DNA of 64,000 bases from Escherichia phage vB_EcoM-G3F7: sequence record MZ234035.1. One strand, 5' to 3'. Of this stretch, positions 1-64,000 are shown one piece after another. The notes beneath the pieces were generated by a model, which made no database searches, was not told the DNA's origin, and saw only the letters and a program-made list of their open reading frames with translations. Numbering within the stretch: position 1 is the first letter of the stretch; the number at the start of each line of letters is the position of its first letter. Position numbers and translations under genes: made by a program.

Positions 1-969
1 ATGAAAACTGTAACTATCAATAAGGGTATCTACTTCGGTAAAGAAATCTCTGGAACTTTTGAGCTCTTAGGTGAATGGTTCCCAGATAATGCTCCGGTAG
101 ATGCACAAGGAGATGGTAAAGTTTTTGTTGAAATTGACGGTAAGCGTCGCGGTGTTTGGGTTTACAAATCAGACATTTCATATGATGGTGTAAAAGTTGA
201 AGAAGTTAAAGAATCATATGAAGATATGAAAACCCGCATTAATAAAAGATTTAATGTTATGGGAATGATGACGAATGGTATTATTAACGGAAACATTCGT
301 TCATTAATTATCTCTGGTGCGGCGGGTATTGGTAAAACGTATTCTTTAGATAAAGCTTTGAATAAAGCAAATGATAATGGATACATTGAATATAAAAGCA
401 TTAACGGTAAAATCTCCGGTATCGGTCTTTATGAACAACTTTGGAATAATCGTGAAGAGAATTCTGTCCTTTTGATTGATGATGTGGATGTTTTCTCTGA
501 TATGGACATTCTTAATCTTCTGAAAGCTGCTCTGGACACTGGAGAGACCCGTAAAGTCTGCTGGAGCACCGCATCTTCTTACTTAGAAGAAAAAGGCATT
601 GAGCGTGAGTTTGAATTTAAAGGAACGATTGTTTTTATCACAAACGTTGACATTGACCGCGAATTAGACCGTGGTACTAAACTTGCTCCACATTTACAAG
701 CATTAGTGTCCCGCTCGGTTTATTTGGATTTGGGTGTTCACACTAATGAAGAAATTATGGTCAGGGTTGAAGATGTTATTCTTTCAACTGACATGATGCA
801 AAAGCGCGGTCTTTCTGATGAAGAAACTTATAAAGCATTATCATGGATGAAAGTTAATGTTAATCGTTTACGCAATGTTTCACTGCGTACTGCTCTTTAT
901 CTTGCTGACTTTATTATGACCGACAAAAACGGTTGGGAAGAAATTGCTGAGGTTACTCTTCTGAAATAA
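1..969 (+). CDS. P-loop NTPase (AAA-like), nrdC.11-like early protein
   Basis: 322-aa ORF; Walker A GAAGIGKT and Walker B LLIDDVD motifs. Confidence 0.7.
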   Translation: MKTVTINKGIYFGKEISGTFELLGEWFPDNAPVDAQGDGKVFVEIDGKRRGVWVYKSDISYDGVKVEEVKESYEDMKTRINKRFNVMGMMTNGIINGNIRSLIISGAAGIGKTYSLDKALNKANDNGYIEYKSINGKISGIGLYEQLWNNREENSVLLIDDVDVFSDMDILNLLKAALDTGETRKVCWSTASSYLEEKGIEREFEFKGTIVFITNVDIDRELDRGTKLAPHLQALVSRSVYLDLGVHTNEEIMVRVEDVILSTDMMQKRGLSDEETYKALSWMKVNVNRLRNVSLRTALYLADFIMTDKNGWEEIAEVTLLK

Positions 970-1058
970 TTCATAAGAGGACTTCTATGACAAAAAGGCA
1001 GTTCAGAAATAGATTATATGGACTGCCATTAAAAAGATGACTAGAATTAAACTGGTGA

Positions 1059-1373
1059 ATGGAGGTAATGATGTTATACTCAAAGGCTCGTGAAATTTAC
1101 GAAACTAAAATTAAAGAAGCAGTATTTAAGTTCGCAACGACAATGCGATGGACAAATGACTGGGAGTATTCAAAAAATCATAAGAAGCCCATGGTGACAA
1201 GAAAGGCTCATATGTTAGTGTTAATAGACCGTGAGCAGATTAAAGCCCGAGAAGCCCTCCAGAATCATAAAAAGGCTGCCTTTGAATGGTTTATGGATAA
1301 CACTGCTCCTGAGACTAAGAAAGCGGTAAGCGCATGGTTCAGTGGAAAAAATTGTGAAAGAAGTTTCTTTTAG
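1059..1373 (+). CDS. hypothetical protein
   Basis: 104-aa ORF; GGAGG RBS precedes internal ATG at 1071, so true start may be 1071. Confidence 0.45.
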   Translation: MEVMMLYSKAREIYETKIKEAVFKFATTMRWTNDWEYSKNHKKPMVTRKAHMLVLIDREQIKAREALQNHKKAAFEWFMDNTAPETKKAVSAWFSGKNCERSFF

Positions 1374-1375
1374 TG

Positions 1376-1405
1376 GTTTACAAGACTGTTCCTCTGTGGT
1401 ACTAT
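1376..1405 (+). promoter_or_regulatory. T4-type early promoter
   Basis: GTTTAC, 18-nt spacer with TGG, TACTAT. Confidence 0.6.
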
Positions 1406-1433
1406 ACAACTATCAACTACGGAGGAACACAAA

Positions 1434-1961
1434 ATGAACGCTAAAGATATTTTCAACCTGGTAAATTACAACGATGGTAAATTTAAATCTGAAGCACAAA
1501 GTAAGTTCTTTAATGACATCTCAATCGAAGGTGAAATCACGGTTGACGGAGGACAAATTTACAAATCTCGTTGGAATTGGATCGTTATTATCGATGAGAT
1601 TGGTATTGTAGAAATTTACAAGAATACGAATAAAAATCGTACATTACACTGGTCTCGTGATACTAACGAACAGTACAAAAAGGATAAAGCATCTAAATTA
1701 TCTCGTGTAACTCAAGAAGATATTGAGTTCATCAAGAAAGATATTTTGATGTATGATAACTTAATTGCTGAAGAGCAAGCTGTTATTGATAAATTTGATG
1801 AGATTAAAGCTTCTCGTGAAATTCCTGATTTTATGAAAGAATCAGTAAATGAACGATACACTCTCATTTCAGAGCGTATTGAAACTTACAAAAAGCAAAG
1901 AGCTGAACGCCAGAATACTCTTCGGAAGTTTGAAGAACGGTTAAAGACGGTACTCGCATAA
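1434..1961 (+). CDS. hypothetical early protein
   Basis: 175-aa ORF immediately downstream of early promoter 1376-1405 and GGAGG RBS. Confidence 0.55.
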   Translation: MNAKDIFNLVNYNDGKFKSEAQSKFFNDISIEGEITVDGGQIYKSRWNWIVIIDEIGIVEIYKNTNKNRTLHWSRDTNEQYKKDKASKLSRVTQEDIEFIKKDILMYDNLIAEEQAVIDKFDEIKASREIPDFMKESVNERYTLISERIETYKKQRAERQNTLRKFEERLKTVLA

Positions 1962-1962
1962 C

Positions 1963-1987
1963 CGCTTTATACCAAGGATGGTATAAT
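1963..1987 (+). promoter_or_regulatory. MotA-box-like middle promoter
   Basis: CGCTTTA box, 11-12-nt spacer, TATAAT. Confidence 0.4.
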
Positions 1988-2016
1988 GGTTCTAAGCCCT
2001 TTTAATTGAGATTATT

Positions 2017-2424
2017 ATGAAACAGTTGATAATTAAAAGATTGAATTTATTGATATGTTGTTTATGTATAGCAATTGCATATGGTTATTACGCAATTAAT
2101 GATTATATGCATTATAAAGATTATGATGTTACTGTAGTTAATACCATTACAGGAACACAAGGAAAAGGGTCTAGTTTATCGTTTATTGCCGTATATGAAC
2201 TCAAAGATGGTTATAGATTTAGTGAATATATTTCCCCAGAGATGTATTCATCAATAGAAAAAGGTGATAATATTACTGTAAGTTTACGTCCTTTCGACGT
2301 AAAACAGACATTGTTTGATAATATTGTTTGGTTCTTTGGAATGGTATTAGTTCAATCTGTGTGTGGTGCTTATATAGTCTGTTCCATCTTATTCTGTATA
2401 TTTAGTAAAATTGAAATTGAGTGA
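2017..2424 (+). CDS. hypothetical membrane protein
   Basis: 135-aa ORF with hydrophobic Cys-rich segments at both ends. Confidence 0.5.
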   Translation: MKQLIIKRLNLLICCLCIAIAYGYYAINDYMHYKDYDVTVVNTITGTQGKGSSLSFIAVYELKDGYRFSEYISPEMYSSIEKGDNITVSLRPFDVKQTLFDNIVWFFGMVLVQSVCGAYIVCSILFCIFSKIEIE

Positions 2425-2431
2425 GGAAAAT

Positions 2432-3319
2432 ATGTCAGTAGTAATTAATAATGTCAATGCAGTAATTAAATCTTTAGTTAATAAAAAATTAAATGAATGG
2501 ACTGTACTTCGTCGTGGAGAGCCAGATAAATTTTTTCATAGATTTAACCCAACTTTGGATTTGAATGTTATTGACAGAGATGTTCATGCTGAAATTTTAG
2601 ATAAATTTAAAGTTGATATTGGGTTTGGGTTAGATAAACATTTGCAACGAACAAACGGATCTGGAATGGGTTTATCTAATCGCATCATGAAAGCCCTTAA
2701 TAAAATTGGAGCGTTGTCTCGTATTAATGCGAGTGAAATCCTTCGCAATTATAATAAAGGATATGACCTTTATGGTCGACTAATGCCGAAATTATCATTT
2801 GACCAAATGATTGCGGATTTGTGGGAAAATCAACGACGATTATTAGCATTAGGCGCTCGATTAGCTAAAGGTCTAGATAAACAAATGATTTTTAAGACCA
2901 ATAATACAGAAGACCTTAAATGCTTTAAATTTAGTACTCGTGGAGATGATTATTACATCAGAGCTCGCTCTACAGATTATGTTAATATGGGGCATCATCT
3001 CTGTTTAGCTTTTGAAGTTTTAAAAGAAGCCGGAACATTAGAATATGTGTCTGGTGCTAAATGTCCGATTGGTTCAAATTGCATTTTAATTTATCGCCCA
3101 GATGAATCCAGTTCAACTAAATTACCTACAAAACCTGTACCAGTTCGCAGTAATGAAAAACATTCTGAACAAATTGCTTATTTTAATAAGCAGATTGAAG
3201 AGCTAAATATTTCTATTCAGCAATATGATGATGAAATTTTCAGACTATCTGGATTGAGTAGTAAAGCTAAATCTGAGCGTGAAAAATTAATTAAAATCGT
3301 TGATTTACTTAAATCTTAA
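2432..3319 (+). CDS. hypothetical protein with C-terminal coiled coil (paralog A)
   Basis: ATG at 2432 after GAGGA RBS; C-terminal heptad-rich tail. Confidence 0.55.
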   Translation: MSVVINNVNAVIKSLVNKKLNEWTVLRRGEPDKFFHRFNPTLDLNVIDRDVHAEILDKFKVDIGFGLDKHLQRTNGSGMGLSNRIMKALNKIGALSRINASEILRNYNKGYDLYGRLMPKLSFDQMIADLWENQRRLLALGARLAKGLDKQMIFKTNNTEDLKCFKFSTRGDDYYIRARSTDYVNMGHHLCLAFEVLKEAGTLEYVSGAKCPIGSNCILIYRPDESSSTKLPTKPVPVRSNEKHSEQIAYFNKQIEELNISIQQYDDEIFRLSGLSSKAKSEREKLIKIVDLLKS

Positions 3320-3327
3320 GGAACACC

Positions 3328-4356
3328 ATGAAAACTCGTTCTCAAATTGAAGATATGGTTCGTAATGCCAGCTATACTCGTGATGTTATGACATTTTTGT
3401 GTGAAAATAATTTAGACCCTGATAAAGTTAATCGTGTTATTCATCACTTTAAGTATACGAATAGCAGTGAATGGGTGCGTAATTTTAGTAAAGCAGGGTA
3501 TATTACACAAATGACTGCTCGTGAACAGCTCACCGATTTCTGTAAAACTATTGATTATAAAAATCCTTTGATTGTTCAAGGCGTTGGTCAAAGTAAGGTC
3601 GATTTATCATCTGGATTTTTCAATCCAAATCATTATCGTATTGAATGGAGATTTATTGCTCTATTCCGTAAACAATTAAAGCAAATTTTGTCTACTGCTA
3701 GTCGATTAAAAGGCTCTGATATTAACTTAAAGAACCTGAAATTTGATGGTTATACTCTTCAGATGGAAGTAAGACCGTTAAAAGAAAATAATAGAACTGC
3801 ACGAATTAGCTTTAAGCCTAATACTAAAAATTCTCTTTCAATTTGTGAATGTCTTAAATCACAGCTGACAGAAGCATTTAAGTATATGGATGTTGTTGCT
3901 GCTGTTCAATCTAAGATTTTACCTCGTTTTGAGCGAAATTGGGAACATACAACAACATATGAACTTGATATGATCGTTTCATTTAAATATGAATTTTTGA
4001 GAAAGGATGAAATTGTTCAAGAGAAAAAGCAGGAAGTGCAAGATACCTTAAATTTAAATTTATCCAATTACTTATCAAACGATCCTAAATTTTGGATGTA
4101 TAGCTCAAGCAATATAGATGCATGTAAACTTAATAAAGTGAGTTTTCTTCCTACTGAAAATTCAAATTTTAAACCTGTAGAAAAATGGCACGCTGACGCG
4201 ATTGAGAAGTCTCTTAAGGCAGTAGATGATGAACTCGTTAAAGCGACCAATGAAGTGCTAGAAGCTGAAAAGGCGTTAGAACAAGCTCAGTCAAGGGTTC
4301 AAAATCTGACAAAGCAACGTTCTAAACTGAACAATGCACTAAATGCACTGAACTAG
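3328..4356 (+). CDS. hypothetical protein with C-terminal coiled coil (paralog B)
   Basis: 342-aa ORF; tail ...LEAEKALEQAQSRVQNLTKQRSKLNNALNALN; core resembles next two ORFs. Confidence 0.6.
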   Translation: MKTRSQIEDMVRNASYTRDVMTFLCENNLDPDKVNRVIHHFKYTNSSEWVRNFSKAGYITQMTAREQLTDFCKTIDYKNPLIVQGVGQSKVDLSSGFFNPNHYRIEWRFIALFRKQLKQILSTASRLKGSDINLKNLKFDGYTLQMEVRPLKENNRTARISFKPNTKNSLSICECLKSQLTEAFKYMDVVAAVQSKILPRFERNWEHTTTYELDMIVSFKYEFLRKDEIVQEKKQEVQDTLNLNLSNYLSNDPKFWMYSSSNIDACKLNKVSFLPTENSNFKPVEKWHADAIEKSLKAVDDELVKATNEVLEAEKALEQAQSRVQNLTKQRSKLNNALNALN

Positions 4357-4385
4357 TTTACTTTGCCACAAGGATGTGGTATAAT
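4356..4385 (+). promoter_or_regulatory. T4-type early promoter
   Basis: GTTTAC, 18-nt spacer, TATAAT. Confidence 0.6.
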
Positions 4386-4413
4386 GTTTTTACTTTCTAC
4401 TGAGGAGATTATT

Positions 4414-5415
4414 ATGACTCGTAACGAATATATCAAATCATTCAATAGCGTTATTGATGATAAAGCTATACCGATGTTTGGCCAAAATAGCGTTCTTTCT
4501 ATTATCAATCAATGGCTCAATAGTGTTGATGCAAGTATTGTTTCTTCTACTAAATTTATTCATGAAATTCGTAAAATTTCTAGCCGTGTAGATAAAGATG
4601 TTATCAAGAAAACCTTTAAAGAGTCTCGTCTTCTTTCATATTTGGTTAATCGGGATATTCTTGGTAATTTTGGGAAAGAAATTAAACGAACTAAAGATGT
4701 AGTAGGATACAATTGGTTCGGTGATGTTAATTCTTATCATCTTAATATTAAAGAAGACCCTGAGAATATTTTTACTCGTCGTTGGATCAGTAATTTCAGA
4801 CTTTTTAAGAAACAAATTCTAAAATCAGCTTCTAAATTATGTTATGGCGATTATCGTCAAATTCATCCTTTGGCTTCTGATATGATTATCATAAAAGAAT
4901 ATGAACTTGATAAAAATAAAGTATCTATTTTTGTGAATTATGGATTTTTTACACCAGAAACTAACCAAAAGAATATTAATAAATTTTTCTCAATTGCTAG
5001 CACTATAACTCGTCAATTAGAGACCGCATTACTTTGTATGGAAACAGTAGAAAATATTCATACATATCCTTTTAAGAATATATGCGGTTGGGAAGGATAT
5101 AAACTCGTAATTAGCCTTCGTGAAGTGAAATGTGCTTATTCACCTACTGATAAAGAAATTTACCAACAAAAATGTGATGAAATTGTGAATACTCCTAAAG
5201 AAGAAACTACCCTTGAGGAACTAATGGAATGTCTTGATGATTCACCTGAACCGATAGAAATTCGTCCAGAAGTTATTGCACTAGAAAAAGCTTATAAAGA
5301 AGTTCTAGAAATTTCTAATAAAGCGCAGAAAGAATATGAGCAGGCTAAAAGGATTTGGGAAGAATCTGTTAATCGTCTTGATCGTCTGGAACAAGCTTTA
5401 CAGTTAATTAAGTAA
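4414..5415 (+). CDS. hypothetical protein with C-terminal coiled coil (paralog C)
   Basis: ATG at 4414 after GAGGAG RBS; shares FKKQILKSASKL core with paralog B; heptad tail. Confidence 0.6.
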   Translation: MTRNEYIKSFNSVIDDKAIPMFGQNSVLSIINQWLNSVDASIVSSTKFIHEIRKISSRVDKDVIKKTFKESRLLSYLVNRDILGNFGKEIKRTKDVVGYNWFGDVNSYHLNIKEDPENIFTRRWISNFRLFKKQILKSASKLCYGDYRQIHPLASDMIIIKEYELDKNKVSIFVNYGFFTPETNQKNINKFFSIASTITRQLETALLCMETVENIHTYPFKNICGWEGYKLVISLREVKCAYSPTDKEIYQQKCDEIVNTPKEETTLEELMECLDDSPEPIEIRPEVIALEKAYKEVLEISNKAQKEYEQAKRIWEESVNRLDRLEQALQLIK

Positions 5416-5467
5416 TTTAAAGCCAAGGATGGCTCGGAGTATAAATCATTAACCAAGTGAGAAGAAC

Positions 5468-6394
5468 ATGAAAACTCGTAAACATTATATTGATTATTTT
5501 GACAGTCTTATTACTAAACATCGTAATTATCAGATAGGACACAGAGCAGTAATCAATAATATTCTTCGTGATTTTTTAGACTATATTGGATGGGAAAACC
5601 ATATTTGTAAAGATACACAAAATGCGTATTCACATTCTCTTGGTTCTTTGCTCGAGTGGTTCAAACGTTCCCGATTACTATCTTCTGTGATAGCTGTTAA
5701 TAATGTTAAAAAATTTATGTATCCAAGCTACATTGAGACTAATGTATCAAATGCTAGTGTTGTTACATTTAATATTATTAACGACGTGAAAAGAACTTAT
5801 TTAGAAGAATGGTTTTCTAAAGATAGTAAAGAAAAATTTGCTAGTGAATTTTCACACGAATTCAATAATAACGTGAATATGCTTTTTAAGCATTCTCGTA
5901 GACTGTTTTGTCATGGTGATAACCGTACTATTAATGTGAATGTAAAAGACTGGGTTACGGCTAAATTCACTCCATCGTCCCAGAATGGGCAATTTGAATT
6001 GTCAATTATCATTTGTGCTCCGCACGAGATATATAAAAACCTTCCGTATATGAAACCACGCGAAGCTAATAAACACAATGAAACTATTAGTTCTTTGGCT
6101 TATAATTTACGCGTGTTATTATCTGATATGGATGTAGTCAAATCCTTTGATGATAATACGAATTATGGTCTTTCGCTGTTTGAAACTAAATTTGTTATTA
6201 AATTAAAGGACCCTAGTGAATTTAAACCTACACCAAAATCCAATCATGGAAATGATACTATGAAAGAAGAACGCGAATATCTCAGTGCCCGTTTGATTGA
6301 AGTTGAAAAACAGATTGAAGAGCATACTAAAGTTCTTAAGGCTTTAACCGCCAAAGCAAATGGTTTACGTAATGCTATTGAGGTATTGAAATGA
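5468..6394 (+). CDS. hypothetical protein with C-terminal coiled coil (paralog D)
   Basis: 308-aa ORF; heptad tail ...[31 protein letters not shown]. Confidence 0.6.
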   Translation: MKTRKHYIDYFDSLITKHRNYQIGHRAVINNILRDFLDYIGWENHICKDTQNAYSHSLGSLLEWFKRSRLLSSVIAVNNVKKFMYPSYIETNVSNASVVTFNIINDVKRTYLEEWFSKDSKEKFASEFSHEFNNNVNMLFKHSRRLFCHGDNRTINVNVKDWVTAKFTPSSQNGQFELSIIICAPHEIYKNLPYMKPREANKHNETISSLAYNLRVLLSDMDVVKSFDDNTNYGLSLFETKFVIKLKDPSEFKPTPKSNHGNDTMKEEREYLSARLIEVEKQIEEHTKVLKALTAKANGLRNAIEVLK

Positions 6395-6780
6395 AAAAGC
6401 GTTTATTAGAAGACATTGCAGCTTCAAGTAATTCCAGTTTAATTAAAATTATTATGGCTGGTGAGGAAGATGATATGGAAATGCGTGGAAAGATTCACGG
6501 CTGCGACGATTTAGATTTTAAACCTCCAGCATGGGATGCTATTATGGCTATGGTTGAACGACGTGAAAGAGCTTCTAAAAACGTTCCTAATTGCCCTGAA
6601 TGCGGTACTGAACAAGTTCAATTGATTAACTGGCGTAAACCAGAGCTTGAATATAAATGCCGTCAATGTAAACATAAATTCAGTAAGCATGCTCCGGAAA
6701 TGGTTAAATTGCCTGACTCTACTGAGTTCTTTAAAGAACTTGTGAGTGTTCAACCAATGCCTAATAATATTTTGGATTAA
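6391..6780 (+). CDS. hypothetical zinc-ribbon protein
   Basis: 129-aa ORF; CPECG...CRQC motif; ATGA start/stop overlap with upstream ORF. Confidence 0.55.
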
Positions 6781-6782
6781 AA

Positions 6783-7025
6783 ATGACCAAGCGTAAAGAA
6801 TATATGGAGGCTGCTGAAAAGGCAGTCCGTGAATTAGCAATAGCTTATTATAATGAACATGGTAAATTTCCTGATAGATACAGCGTGCTTAAATCTGCTT
6901 TAACTCGTTCATATAAAAATATGCTATCAGAAGTAAGTGATATTATATACAAACATAAAGAACAAACGGGCCAAAGTCTTGATTACGACGAGACTTTTAA
7001 ACAAGTACTAGGAATTAAGGAATAA
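6783..7025 (+). CDS. hypothetical protein
   Basis: 80-aa ORF tightly packed between neighbours. Confidence 0.5.
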
Positions 7026-10827: not shown

Positions 10828-11650
10828 GTATTATATAATTTATAAAATAACAAATATAATTAATTCAAAGGAATATATCGGTGCGCATAGCACCGATAAC
10901 ATAAATGACGGTTATATGGGGTCAGGAACATTGATTCGTGCCGCTTTATTAAAATATGGTAGAAAAAATTTTAATAAAGAAATTTTACATGTTTTTGATA
11001 ATGAAAAACAAATGTATGATAAAGAAGCTGAACTTGTAACCGAAGAGTATTGTCTAAAAGAAAATACATATAATATTAAACCTGGTGGAAAAGGTGGAAC
11101 TGCTTATGAACAGACACTTGAACATCGCCACAAAAATAGTTTAGCAAATAAAGGTAAAAAGAAAACAGCAGAAACTAAAATAGCTATTTCACGTGCTTTA
11201 AAGAAATATAAACGTACACCAGAGCATCAAGCAAATTTAAATAAAGCTGTAAGCATAGCTATGAAGCGAAAAGATGTTAGAAGTAAATTAGTTGGAGAGC
11301 GGTCTGAGAAAGATAAATTATCTATATCAAACGGTGTTAAAAAATATTACAATTCTTTGAGCGAAGAAGAACGCGAACTTCATCGCAAGCGAATTATTGA
11401 AGGTAAAAAGAATTCTCCCATGTCATTGGAATCTAGACAAAAGCTTTCAAAAGCTTTAAAAGGACTTCAAGTTGGTTCAAAAAATCCAATGTATGGAAAA
11501 ATTTCTCCAACTAGTAAAACCGTTTCAGTTGACGGTATTAAATATGATTCAATTAAAAAGTGCTCAAATGCCATAAAAGTTTCTAGACATCTTATACTGA
11601 AACGCTGTAATTCTACTGATGAAGCTTGGAAAAATTGGATATTATTATGA
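10820..11650 (+). CDS. free-standing GIY-YIG homing endonuclease (Seg-like)
   Basis: 276 aa; N-terminal IIY...(10 aa)...YIG motif; basic C-terminal half; overlaps nrdD stop and nrdG start. Confidence 0.8.
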   Translation: MHRYYIIYKITNIINSKEYIGAHSTDNINDGYMGSGTLIRAALLKYGRKNFNKEILHVFDNEKQMYDKEAELVTEEYCLKENTYNIKPGGKGGTAYEQTLEHRHKNSLANKGKKKTAETKIAISRALKKYKRTPEHQANLNKAVSIAMKRKDVRSKLVGERSEKDKLSISNGVKKYYNSLSEEERELHRKRIIEGKKNSPMSLESRQKLSKALKGLQVGSKNPMYGKISPTSKTVSVDGIKYDSIKKCSNAIKVSRHLILKRCNSTDEAWKNWILL

Positions 11651-12118
11651 ACTATGACAGAATATACCCGTGCTGCTTTGTGAATGGTCCTGGATGCAGG
11701 ACCGTTCTTTTCGTTACAGGTTGTTTGCATAAATGCGAAGGGTGTTATAATAAATCAACATGGAATGCTAGAAATGGTATTCCATTCACTGGTGAAACAC
11801 TAGAACAATTAATTGAATGTTTGAATAATGATTATATAGAAGGATTAACTATAACCGGAGGTGACCCTCTTTATCCTGATAACAGAGACGTGATTCATTG
11901 CATCGTTCAAACAGTAAAAAAATCTTTATCCCAATAAAAGCATTTGGTTGTGGACAGGATATAAGTTTGAAGATATTAAACAACTAGAAATGCTTAAATA
12001 TGTTGATGTTATTATTGATGGAAAGTATGAGAAAAATCTTCCGACTAAAAAGCTGTGGCGAGGATCAGATAATCAGCGACTTTGGTCAAATACCTATGGG
12101 GTGTGGAAACATGATTAA
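11647..12118 (+). CDS. nrdG: anaerobic RNR activating protein NrdG, apparent +1 frameshift
   Basis: Radical-SAM CxxxCxxC (GCLHKCEGC) part stops at 11935-11937; conserved C-terminal part continues in +1 frame to 12118. Confidence 0.8.
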
Positions 12119-38259: not shown

Positions 38260-38412
38260 ACAAAGATATGACGTTAGAAGAGGCTAAAGCAAAAGCAAAT
38301 GAAGCATTGGATTTGCTTCTTAAAATTGGCAGTAAAATGATGGAAGAAAATGAGAAATATATCCAGGAAAACAAAATTCCTGACGGCCCATTAGTAGGCA
38401 AGAGGAAATCAC

Positions 38413-38883
38413 ATGATTGAAGTAGCAAAACATTATTCAATAGAATTTATGTCTAAAGAAGGTAAATCAGTAAATACACTTGACAAAAAGTGCTCGTTAA
38501 TTATTCCTTTAGCAGAAAATCCGGATATTTTAATTAAAGATATAAAAGAAAGAAAATACCCAGAAAATGTTATTCTAATTATAAAGCATACTGAAGATAT
38601 TTTGCAGAATACTGATTCACCGTTTTCTTCTTCTGAAGCTTTAACTATTAAAGGCTATAAAAGAGCTCATGAATATGGTCTTTTTGACCTGTTTGAAGAC
38701 GATAAAGTTAAATTAGCGAGTCAACCTTCTAAAAGTAAAACATTCATTATTGAAGATATTAAAGATATAAATGCATTCGTTAAGATGGTCTGGGCTCATT
38801 TTGATGTTGGACTACGCTGGAGAATGTCCGAAGAAGAAAGAAAGATTATTGAAGCTAATCGTCAATTTGGTTTTTATCGCTAG
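38413..38883 (+). CDS. hypothetical protein
   Basis: 156-aa ORF. Confidence 0.5.
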
Positions 38884-38891
38884 GAATTAAT

Positions 38892-39074
38892 ATGGATTTA
38901 TTTGAGATGTTAGAAGATAATCATTCTACGAATATCCAGAATGATTCTAGTGATTATAAGAAAGAGTACCGTATAGTATTACAGAATTATGGAATTGAAG
39001 CCCCAGATGCTCTTCTAGAAGAACTAGCTTCATACCATCTTGACCCTCCGCCTTGGGCTCCTTGGGCAAAATAA
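38892..39074 (+). CDS. hypothetical acidic protein
   Basis: 60-aa ORF. Confidence 0.4.
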   Translation: MDLFEMLEDNHSTNIQNDSSDYKKEYRIVLQNYGIEAPDALLEELASYHLDPPPWAPWAK

Positions 39075-60665: not shown

Positions 60666-61322
60666 TTATTTAGCCCTTCCTAATATTCTGGCCGCCTGAG
60701 CACATATTGATTCAAGGCGGTCATTACTTATATGATCATTTCTATACCAGTACATGGTTATTGTTCCAGCATAGATATTATCCAAATTAAAATATGGACA
60801 ACTGTACATGTAGTTTATTTCGGGAGTAGGCTTTTTAGTTGGTAAAAAAGCAAATTTTGAGTCGGAATAATAATGACGTCCATTTAAATGAACTGTATAT
60901 TCATCCATAGTTTTATCAACAGGATATCCTCCAAGTGATTTTTCACTTATTGTTGAAGGTAATTTTCCTTCATATGCTATAATATCAACAAAATAGTTTA
61001 AGTTTTTAGGGCGGAAAGAATACACCGCACTAAAGTCTGCCTCAGATGATATATGAACTATCTGGAGTTGTTCCAGGGCGACAGATTCAAAGCGTGCATT
61101 TCTTTCCTTTTCAATAATTTCACTGTATGTTTCATACTTTGATTGCTTATAGTACTCAAAGAAACTATCTCCCCTATACCAAACAATCGCCATCATAAAT
61201 AAAAGAATTACGACAGCTACCCGGGAAGCAAGAACTTTCCCGGTAGCGTTATCTTTGAACAAGCGATCTAGAACACCAAACAGAATACCAGAGGGCGAAA
61301 ATGATATTCTAGGTGCTGCCAT
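60666..61322 (-). CDS. t: holin T
   Basis: 218 aa; N-terminal TM segment and large periplasmic domain; matches T4 holin. Confidence 0.9.
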   Translation of the reverse strand: MAAPRISFSPSGILFGVLDRLFKDNATGKVLASRVAVVILLFMMAIVWYRGDSFFEYYKQSKYETYSEIIEKERNARFESVALEQLQIVHISSEADFSAVYSFRPKNLNYFVDIIAYEGKLPSTISEKSLGGYPVDKTMDEYTVHLNGRHYYSDSKFAFLPTKKPTPEINYMYSCPYFNLDNIYAGTITMYWYRNDHISNDRLESICAQAARILGRAK

Positions 61323-61352
61323 AGACCCTCCTTTTAAGGGTATTTATTCACA

Positions 61353-62107
61353 TTATACTCTTGGACCATATATTGCTCCAACATTTTGCCATGTTGGAGC
61401 GGACCCTATGACAGCATAACCAGCAGCGCCGCCATTATATTCAGATCCTTGACCGCGAATATTGCATCTACCTCCCGCGGAACCTACTTCACCACCGTTT
61501 CCACCATTATAGATACCATTCACGGATCCTGAGCCAGGTGCAGAAATAGAATAGATCCTCCTGGCGCACCAAAAGGACGACCGCCACCACCACCAAAGGT
61601 CAATCTCATTCGTGAAAAAGGAGAATAATATCCGCCGCCGCCACCGCCGCCACCGCCTGCAATAGCTCCGCCATTATTAATTCTTAGTCTCCCACCAATA
61701 TCGTTTTGAATACAATGACCTCCAGCTGAGCCAGGACTATTGCTACCGCCATTACCTCCACGACCATACATCGTTACGCCATGTATATTTAACTGAACAT
61801 ATTCATTTGGTGTATCTCCGTACATGAAGAATAAAGGAACATCTTTAGAATAAGAAACGATATCACCAACAATATTGAATACAATAGGTGCACCGCCAGC
61901 TTCAAAGCATCTATCACGGAACCACTGACCATTAAAATTGTGGTTTGCTCCTACAGTATGAATAATTTCTCGTGAGCGACCTGCAAATTGACTCATCCAG
62001 CAAGGAACACCCAATCTTAATTGACCAGCCGCTTGACTCATCCAGCGCTGTCCTGTTTCATTTGCGGCTGAACTTCCAATCCAACCAGGAACACCAACTA
62101 CTGCCAT
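61353..62107 (-). CDS. 38: long tail fibre adhesin gp38 (T2-type, Gly-rich), apparent frameshift
   Basis: N-terminal 195 codons ([13 protein letters not shown]..., poly-Gly) stop at 61520; Gly-rich C-terminal part continues in another frame to stop 61353-61355. Confidence 0.8.
61632..61658 (-). repeat. GC-rich triplet repeat encoding poly-Gly in gp38
   Basis: CCGCCGCCGCCACCGCCGCCACCGCC tract in an AT-rich genome. Confidence 0.6.
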
Positions 62108-62122
62108 AATTTATACTCCAAA

Positions 62123-62137
62123 GGGGGCATTTCCCCC
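62123..62137 (-). other. GC stem-loop between genes 37 and 38
   Basis: GGGGG-5 nt-CCCCC in the 36-nt gap between gp37 stop and gp38 RBS. Confidence 0.4.
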
Positions 62138-62143
62138 TTGTTG

Positions 62144-64000
62144 TTAGAATTTAAAATATTTACTAATTTTGCGAGCAATTTTAGTAAAGAGAGGCGTTTT
62201 CAATTCTTTAATTTCTTCACTCATTTCCTGAATAGCCTTAATTAAAAGAGCATTCACAGCAGAGTTAGAAATTGTCAGAACATCAGATCCATCAACTTCA
62301 ACTTTAGATACAGCTTCCGGTAATTCCTTTTCAAGGTCCTGAGCAATAATACCAACTTCACGTTTAATAACACTACGGTCTTTAATAGACTTAACTTTAT
62401 CGTAAATATAAACTTTCAGTCGGCAAACTTTTTCGACTGCTCCATATTCTAATTCTTCTTTATTAATCTTGAGACGGGAGTCAGAACGAATATACACATC
62501 GCTAAAGCTACCATTTCCTGGTGTATAAAAGAATCCATCATGATGGAATTCAAACACAGCTTGTGGGTGTCCAGCATCAGGAGAAGCCTCCGTGGATCCG
62601 ACACGAATGATTGCTTGCCCCCACTGTGATGGAATACGACGCATACCAAAGTCAACAGCGGTGCTATATCCTTGATTGGTTATAACGCTTCTTGCTTTAA
62701 GAATAGGATAATAACTATCTTGACCAACATAACCATGATCAACGAATAATGGAGCTTCTACTCGCCATTGGTTGCCCCAATCACCCGGTTGTCTAGCAAT
62801 CCATCCAGAACCGTTAATGTGTACACGGTCACGGTTAACGTTAACCATTGCGGTATTTTGCGGGTTTAACGCAATCTCACCATTGTTTGTGATATGTACT
62901 GCCGCCTGAGAAGCATAGCTATAAAATGCTAGCGAATTATCAGCACCACCCTTGCCAATATACCAGTTACCAGTCCCGTCTATGTCACCGCGAATATGCA
63001 AAGAATTACTAGCAGTTGTTGATAATACAATAGAATCATTAGGTGCATTGATTGTTAACCGACCTGTCATCGTATCACCGCCTTTACCTAGGCGAGTATT
63101 CAAGGCAGCATCTAAATTGGTTGCATCGTTGTATTTCTTCCAGATTGAACCAGCAATGTTACCATCAGTGTTCAAGAATGCTGCGCCAGCATAAACTCGG
63201 CTTTGTGACATGAATCGGCCAGACGGCAAGAAACGCCATATAGCTAATTCAGTGGCTGTAGTTCCAGTAGCGGATAAATCACCCTGAGCAACGATACGAT
63301 ATTCTGAACTAGCAATATCCATACCAGAAGCCATAGTAATATTTGTTACAGTGTTTTTCTGTTTAACAATTGGCGCAAACTGGTTTTTATTTGAATCGTC
63401 AATAGCCTGATATAATGGCGCAATGGTAGTATTCTGATTTGCGTAAGTATTAGAACCAGAACCGCTAGCAGGGGCTTGAATATATGCTCCTGGAGCAAGT
63501 GAAATTTTCTGATTAGCACCAAGATTAACAGCAGCAGTGATATTCAGCAATCCCCTAAAGTTTTGTTGAGCAGTCCAAGTGTGTGATCCGTCTTCAAGAA
63601 CAACACGACGACAAGTATTAGTCCTACTTCCTGGATTACCAGCGATACGAACAACGAAATAACGATAGTTCGCCTGAGATACAGTACCGCGCCACACTTG
63701 AACAGTTCGACCCGTTCCGGTATGTTCGCTAGGACCGACAGAAAACATAACCAGGTTTCCATCAATCGTGCCCCAATCCATATTTGCTGGCATATTCTTT
63801 ATTTTGTTCAAAGGAACACTAAACATACTACCAGGGACAAAATCAAAGGTTTGCCAATCTAACTCCGCTAATTGAGCTTTAATACCACCCATACCCAAAG
63901 TAATTGGCAGAGAATAAGATGTATATACTTCGTTCCATGCACCCCACGCACCACCAGTATATGCACGCTCAAAAATACGATCGCGAGTAGTTGCACCCGT
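62144..64000 (-). CDS. 37: long tail fibre distal subunit gp37, 3' portion (5' end beyond window)
   Basis: Frame open from window edge to stop 62144-62146; Ser/Thr/Gly/Asn-rich fibre repeats; C-terminal chaperone-like domain. Confidence 0.85.
   Translation of the reverse strand, partial: TGATTRDRIFERAYTGGAWGAWNEVYTSYSLPITLGMGGIKAQLAELDWQTFDFVPGSMFSVPLNKIKNMPANMDWGTIDGNLVMFSVGPSEHTGTGRTVQVWRGTVSQANYRYFVVRIAGNPGSRTNTCRRVVLEDGSHTWTAQQNFRGLLNITAAVNLGANQKISLAPGAYIQAPASGSGSNTYANQNTTIAPLYQAIDDSNKNQFAPIVKQKNTVTNITMASGMDIASSEYRIVAQGDLSATGTTATELAIWRFLPSGRFMSQSRVYAGAAFLNTDGNIAGSIWKKYNDATNLDAALNTRLGKGGDTMTGRLTINAPNDSIVLSTTASNSLHIRGDIDGTGNWYIGKGGADNSLAFYSYASQAAVHITNNGEIALNPQNTAMVNVNRDRVHINGSGWIARQPGDWGNQWRVEAPLFVDHGYVGQDSYYPILKARSVITNQGYSTAVDFGMRRIPSQWGQAIIRVGSTEASPDAGHPQAVFEFHHDGFFYTPGNGSFSDVYIRSDSRLKINKEELEYGAVEKVCRLKVYIYDKVKSIKDRSVIKREVGIIAQDLEKELPEAVSKVEVDGSDVLTISNSAVNALLIKAIQEMSEEIKELKTPLFTKIARKISKYFKF

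Follow-up and report, generated by a model that had tools for sequence, protein, structure and literature searches.

Gene 38 adhesins of T2-type phages

Phages of the T2 type depend on the adhesin gp38 (PMC7917993, PMC12032242). In the gp38 of phage S16 (PDB entry 6F45), ten glycine-rich motifs form a three-layer sandwich of polyglycine-II helices. Helices 3–10 of this protein constitute a single excursion from a β-helix, to which the C-terminus returns and which it completes, while the distal loops are the hypervariable segments (HVS) that bind the receptor. In-frame insertions and deletions within these segments, found in host-range mutants, have been summarized previously (PMC12032242).

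We analysed a stretch of 64,000 nucleotides (the window) from the record of Escherichia phage vB_EcoM-G3F7 (MZ234035.1), in which gene 38 has the general character of the T2/T6/S16-type genes. [quoted passage not shown] The G3F7 gene differs from all of these in being interrupted, with a loss of 28 nt from hypervariable segment 3 and a shift of the reading frame.

Layout and identity of the split gene

The features of the region are as follows, in window coordinates.

62144..64000, minus strand: gp37, distal long-tail-fibre subunit, of which the window includes only the C-terminal ~618 codons
61520..62107, minus strand: gp38 5' ORF, 195 codons, with the Gp38_N attachment domain, the β-helix and polyglycine helices 1–5; deposited as QZI81804.1
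61610..61612, minus strand: gp38 codon 166, CGA (Arg), compared with CAA (Gln) in CHD94UKE2
61545..61554, minus strand: junction with tandem CTATT-CTATT, 28 nt being absent between 61549 and 61550
61353..61549, minus strand: gp38 3' part, native residues 197–260, in the −1 frame and ending in GAIYGPRV and a stop
61353..61523, minus strand: 56-codon ORF with a GTG start, as annotated in GenBank; deposited as QZI81803.1
60666..61322, minus strand: holin t, directly downstream of gp38; PF11031, E = 1.3e-116

A preliminary description of this DNA had reported that gene 38 is split over two reading frames, and the ORF coordinates and stops bear this out, with every position given there found to be correct. 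The 5' ORF opens with an ATG at 62107 (MAVVGVPGW) and closes with a TGA at 61520–61522; its residues 1–186 are native and its last nine codons (LFLHLAQDP) are out of frame. The glycine-rich remainder lies in the −1 frame, which is open from 61673 down to a stop at 61353–61355. The GTG that begins the annotated 56-codon ORF overlaps the TGA of the 5' ORF within a GTGA at 61520–61523. [quoted passage not shown] The truncated protein was found by exact-sequence search at NCBI only and was absent from the Logan and ENA read assemblies.

The assignment of the gene to the T2-type gp38 adhesins, and of its two halves to one gene, was also sound. The 195-residue piece matches PF21721 (Gp38_N) over residues 1–42 with 71.7 bits and PF05268 (GP38) over residues 47–185 with 180.9 bits, the latter covering profile positions 1–142 of 218; the 56-residue piece matches positions 166–218 of PF05268 with 49.8 bits. 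Each piece is above the Pfam gathering cut-off of 25 bits for the gp38 profiles. Some 23 profile positions (143–165) are lost between them, and two frames stand where there should be one continuous ORF. Such a single ORF is present in G3F10 (260 codons), CHD94UKE2, WilhelmHis and the other full-length relatives, and the intact sister allele aligns over residues 5–257 with known structures (PDB 9V85_A, E = 9.8e-76; 6F45_D, E = 1.3e-50). The order g37–g38–t is kept in the window. The gp37 ORF as listed has a Peptidase_S74 intramolecular chaperone domain at residues 472–530 and the cleavage motif DVYIR^SD (FSDVYIRSDSRLKI), which creates the docking tip for gp38 and has been described previously (PMC7917993). 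Judged by these matches and by its neighbours, the pair of ORFs is one T2-type gp38 adhesin gene.

The 28-nt gap

The lesion had been described as an indel of a single nucleotide or of one 5-mer, with the advice to align gp38 with that of T2, T6, K3 and Ox2. In our alignments with relatives, a small indel is not what emerges. A megablast search with positions 61300–62150 (851 nt) against 50,697 phage records returned 136 full-length matches. Among the best 40 of these, the 851-nt query aligns to 868–888 nt of the record, most often to 879 nt, and this includes the closest matches. Alignment with G3F10 and WilhelmHis gives one clean 28-nt gap and no other change. The window is identical to positions 1–64028 of the G3F10 record (MZ234038.1) once record positions 61550–61577 are removed, with zero other differences over 64,000 bases, and the genome lengths agree with this (167,839 bp for G3F7, which is the 167,867 bp of G3F10 less 28).

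The 28 nt that are missing relative to G3F10, CHD94UKE2 and WilhelmHis read GATATGCAATCAGGCGCGACTGGCGGTA on the coding strand. They encode Asp187 to Gly195 and the first base of Thr196, where hypervariable segment 3 begins. The minus-strand stretch GGAGGATCTATTCTATTTCTGCACC noted in the preliminary description is indeed present; its tandem 5-mer, which on the plus strand is AATAG at 61545–61549 followed by AATAG at 61550–61554, is the junction that the gap creates (GGATCTATTCTATTTCTGC). Of the two repairs proposed there, deleting one 5-mer does give a single ORF, of 249 codons, but the intact gene has 260 codons and not about 250; adding one nucleotide restores the frame but does not recover the true sequence.

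The gap is confined to the G3F7 record. All 136 full-length relatives encode gp38 as one ORF, and no other carrier of the 28-nt deletion junction (Δ28) was found in viral_contigs or among 522 matching phage records. The missing 28-mer was not found elsewhere in the window with up to three mismatches allowed, and we therefore rejected the reading that the segment had been moved. No compensatory change relative to G3F10 was found in the 64 kb; gp37, including its tip, is identical to that of G3F10 in the window and so has none.

Predicted consequence for the adhesin

By the motif pattern of the intact sequence, residues 187–197 would correspond to the distal loop between helices 5 and 6 together with helix 6, and the distal loop that joins helices 3 and 4 (HVS2) would contain Gln166. 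The 195-residue product lacks helices 6–10 and the conserved C-terminus and should therefore be non-functional, in keeping with the statement of the preliminary description that a real frameshift would abolish adsorption. Lacking also the C-terminal strands that complete the β-helix, such a product would not be usable by a plaque-forming T2-type phage.

Lineage and sister records

The MZ2340xx records come from the work of Loose et al. 2021 (PMC8614997), in which phages were bred by an Appelmans-type procedure on uropathogenic E. coli; the libraries were Nextera MiSeq, and the genomes were processed with SPAdes, Geneious map-to-reference and Prokka. Neither G3F7 nor G3F10 is mentioned in the text, tables or supplements of that paper. 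After removal of a 55-nt duplication, the CHD94UKE2 record differs from G3F10 by one base over 66 kb, which gives gp38 Q166R, and this is the sole substitution between CHD94UKE2 and G3F7 or G3F10 in the 64 kb. Within the window, G3F7 thus equals CHD94UKE2 plus Q166R plus the 28-nt gap, and we take it to be a laboratory descendant of CHD94UKE2. Q166R was reported as a new mutation in the bred phage PM123 (PMC8614997, section 2.5). The independently evolved HP3.1 also has Arg166, and HP3.2 has Gln. This pattern suggests that Q166R is an adaptive change that has recurred in the HVS2 distal loop.

Three records of the batch carry assembly scars in the form of exact tandem duplications whose periods, 55 and 127, are SPAdes k values. 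A k-mer overlap left untrimmed where the ends of a circular or circularly permuted contig meet is a known artefact of assembly with SPAdes. In CHD94UKE2 (MZ234031.1) an exact 55-nt tandem duplication at 11660–11769 splits nrdG and accounts for the 55-bp difference in length from G3F10. In G3G7 (MZ234040.1) a tandem duplication with a 127-nt period at 66463–66716 splits gp37 into two overlapping CDSs, while in G3G6 (168,522 bp, which is G3G7 less 127) gp37 is intact. With one copy removed, G3G7 differs from G3G6 at two positions in 8 kb, one of them being 66462, the base just before the scar; this is the pattern expected for a graph cycle cut at the exit of a SNP bubble with the k-mer overlap left untrimmed. 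In CHD16UKE1 (MZ234030.1), where gp38 is at 63367–64208, there is an exact 55-nt tandem duplication at record positions 63852–63961, and at this scar the record lacks 11 nt (TAGTATCATAT) found in G3G7, to which it is 99.5% identical. As a result of the duplication and the loss, gp38 of CHD16UKE1 is annotated as pieces of 83 and 183 residues. Slippage was considered as the source of the 11-nt loss and rejected, since a 12-nt deletion between ATT repeats, worked through by hand, fails to reproduce the record. CHD16UKE1 has been imaged by TEM and forms plaques on 42% of the test strains (PMC8614997). It is therefore viable, and the phage behind a record of this batch need not be defective because gp38 is broken in that record.

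Of the three scars, two are in gp37 or gp38, a pair of genes that accounts for ~2% of the genome, and this suggests that heterogeneity within lysates in the receptor-binding genes breaks contigs. G3F7 shares with the scarred records its laboratory, pipeline and GenBank batch, and in each case the lesion is limited to a single record and disrupts a gene. It differs from them in that 28 nt are lost with no k-length duplication. No tandem duplication of 55, 77, 99 or 127 nt was found in the G3F7 window or in the whole 167,867 bp of G3F10. A scar elsewhere in G3F10 would have placed the G3F7 join away from gp38; as none was found, a join within gp38 is tenable but unproven, and is inferred from the structure of the junction.

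Origin of the gap

The classical rII deletions of T4 are products of replication slippage between short direct repeats. The surroundings of the G3F7 gap resemble such sites, and also those of the host-range indels in gp38, in that two CTATT repeats 33 nt apart flank it and that the gene, which was under selection in this lineage (Q166R), is hit in a loop that contacts the receptor. The wild type reads GGAT-CTATT-[28 nt]-CTATT-TCTG. Slippage between the repeats would delete 33 nt in frame and leave one copy (Δ33, with the junction GGATCTATTTCTGC), removing residues 187–197. The G3F7 record, in contrast, has lost 28 nt, out of frame, and keeps both copies: the gap has no microhomology at its junction and removes exactly the stretch between the repeats. 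By our computation, only 0.19–0.32% of deletions with random boundaries would create such a tandem.

Assembly-graph logic can reproduce the junction, and of the two clonal records only that of G3F7 has the lesion. We simulated a circular de Bruijn graph of the wild-type and Δ33 genomes at every SPAdes k from 21 to 127. At each k, the path shared by the two genomes ends ...GGATCTATT and restarts CTATTTCTG...; when joined bluntly and rotated to the start of the record, this path is identical to the window at every base of the 64 kb, with a total length of 167,839 bp.

In our view, the most consistent interpretation, to which we assign a probability of roughly 0.6, is that the infectious phage does not have the 28-nt gap, which arose as an artefact in the finishing of the deposited G3F7 genome, at a site of heterogeneity in hypervariable segment 3. 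Most likely, the MiSeq/SPAdes contig was broken within this segment, and its ends would have been joined when the genome was rotated to the common start used for the batch. In the most specific version of this account, the DNA preparation would have held wild-type gp38 together with Δ33, or Δ33 in its place. The common path would have ended at ...GGATCTATT and resumed at CTATTTCTG..., and a blunt join of these ends would keep both CTATT copies and lose exactly the 28 nt between them. By another route, if Δ33 reads were mapped to a wild-type reference and their gaps over the repeat placed inconsistently, a per-column majority consensus would presumably yield the same string. The identity with G3F10, the exact gap, the simulated paths and the scars of the batch-mates are direct results of the computations described above; that the contig ended here, and that Δ33 existed, we infer. 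The repair by deletion of one 5-mer mentioned above corresponds to this in-frame slippage allele, a possible source of the record.

Several observations count against this interpretation. Illumina sequencing with SPAdes rarely invents a 28-nt deletion where there is no real heterogeneity. G3F7 has no k-length duplication at the proposed join, unlike its three batch-mates, and the phage is not described in the source paper (PMC8614997). Δ33 was not observed in any of the collections searched: a search of 15 billion sequences gave no match to its exact 249-residue proteins, and neither viral_contigs nor the 50,697 phage records contain its junction. The segment RPFG...GGEVG would have 22 residues in Δ33, compared with 29–38 in about 130 natural gp38 representatives, among which no precedent was found for an HVS3 shorter by 11 residues; this weakens Δ33 as a functional host-range variant. 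By the motif pattern, Δ33 would also take out one whole polyglycine helix and leave an odd number. With a segment too short and an odd number of helices, it would probably be a poor adhesin, and its rise to high frequency would need explaining.

The preliminary description had favoured an assembly or sequencing indel over a real frameshift. The preference for an artefact stands, but the error is not a small indel, 28 nt being absent relative to G3F10.

The strongest competitor to the finishing artefact, which we nevertheless consider unlikely, is a real 28-bp frameshifting deletion, an adhesin loss-of-function allele present in most genomes of the sequenced preparation. In established T-even genetics gp38 is known to act in trans, which allows for complementation: at high multiplicity, as in Appelmans-type passaging, co-infecting wild type could supply working fibres. 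Alternatively, non-adsorbing dead-end particles could accumulate that are not lost to cell debris. Short-read assemblies normally reflect their reads, and the gap is the only difference between G3F7 and G3F10, which is perhaps why both were deposited. The CHD16UKE1 contig runs through an 11-nt deletion in gp38, and HP3.2, a product of directed evolution, also has an 11-nt gp38 deletion, so such alleles may circulate in lysates. Against this, deletions with no microhomology whose ends fall against both copies of a 5-nt repeat would make up ~0.2–0.3% of random cases and have no known mechanism. A null adhesin cannot found a plaque and offers no obvious advantage, the 64 kb contains no compensatory change even at the gp37 tip, and artefacts at the level of the record are proven for these very genes within the batch.

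We regard as decidedly improbable the simpler possibility that the preparation was pure wild type, identical to G3F10, and that the contig ended in gp38 at a coverage gap, so that 28 nt were left unassembled, the ends were joined and the tandem is coincidental. The careless joining of ends in batch-mates, the loss of 11 nt at the join in CHD16UKE1 and the intact allele of G3F10 within the same series are consistent with it. It needs, however, the same coincidence of 0.2–0.3%; a hole of 28 nt is seldom left in a phage genome covered by 2×300 MiSeq reads, and the account offers no reason for a break exactly between the repeats.

More doubtful again is the idea that G3F7 particles truly carry the frameshifted gp38, either infecting without a complete adhesin or belonging to lysates in which non-adsorbing, trans-complemented genomes routinely build up to a large fraction. 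Under this idea, gp38 deletion alleles would recur in phages with T6-like gp38 grown on uropathogenic E. coli (28 nt in G3F7, 11 in CHD16UKE1, 11 in HP3.2 and 1 in HP3), which we hold to be just as doubtful.

Finally, a functional two-piece adhesin, made by programmed −1 ribosomal frameshifting or by termination–reinitiation at the GTGA (61520–61523), can be set aside with near certainty: the −1 frame is open for 51 codons ahead of the upstream stop, and the TGA overlaps the GTG of the second ORF with an AGGA 3 nt upstream, but the frame overlap (61520–61673) contains no X_XXY_YYZ heptamer, no 4-nt slippery A-site run and no homopolymer of six or more, on which ground we rejected recoding, helix 6 would be missing or garbled in any fusion product, and the two-frame arrangement is private to one record, with 136 of 136 full-length relatives encoding one ORF, so that nothing about it is conserved or evolved.

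Implications for the public records

An error in the GenBank record of vB_EcoM-G3F7 is the best reading of the split adhesin, which as such has little biological significance. In practice, G3F7 and CHD16UKE1 would be wrongly scored as devoid of an adhesin when host range or receptor is predicted from gp38 sequences, and both gp38 pieces can already be found in protein databases under the name 'receptor recognizing protein'. Corrections are needed in at least four T-even records of the batch (G3F7, CHD16UKE1, G3G7 and CHD94UKE2). As a diagnostic rule, a deletion that keeps both of its flanking repeats is a useful sign of a mis-rendered indel allele. If the 28-nt deletion were instead true and dominant, the matter of interest would be how adsorption-defective genomes persist in therapeutic phage lysates.

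Other records and annotations

Broken gp38 entries recur in public records of laboratory-passaged T-even phages. In HP3.2 (OP978391.1), a deletion of 11 nt (CACGCTTGGAG) shifts the frame of gp38 at codon ~51, near record position 64340; a literature search found no paper on HP3.2. In the RefSeq entry for HP3 (YP_010278715.1), gp38 has 187 residues owing to a frameshift in the GGN poly-Gly tract. The authors who derived HP3.1 from HP3 report only two SNPs, from which it follows that the HP3 frameshift is probably an error in the record; we accordingly rejected the step from HP3 to HP3.1 as proof of a viable phage with a frameshifted gp38.

We also note that nrdG, the anaerobic ribonucleotide reductase activase gene (window 11626–12118), is present as two ORFs owing to one extra nucleotide (486 nt compared with 485 nt in T6, ECO4 and F26), and that this split is common to G3F10, CHD94UKE2 and PM123. 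In the regions corresponding to window positions 1–7025 and 38268–39074, as annotated in G3F10, sibling records give the name 'thioredoxin' to ten consecutive unrelated CDSs and 'molybdenum ABC transporter' to several small ORFs. It looks as if the annotation pipeline had spread these product names by mistake.
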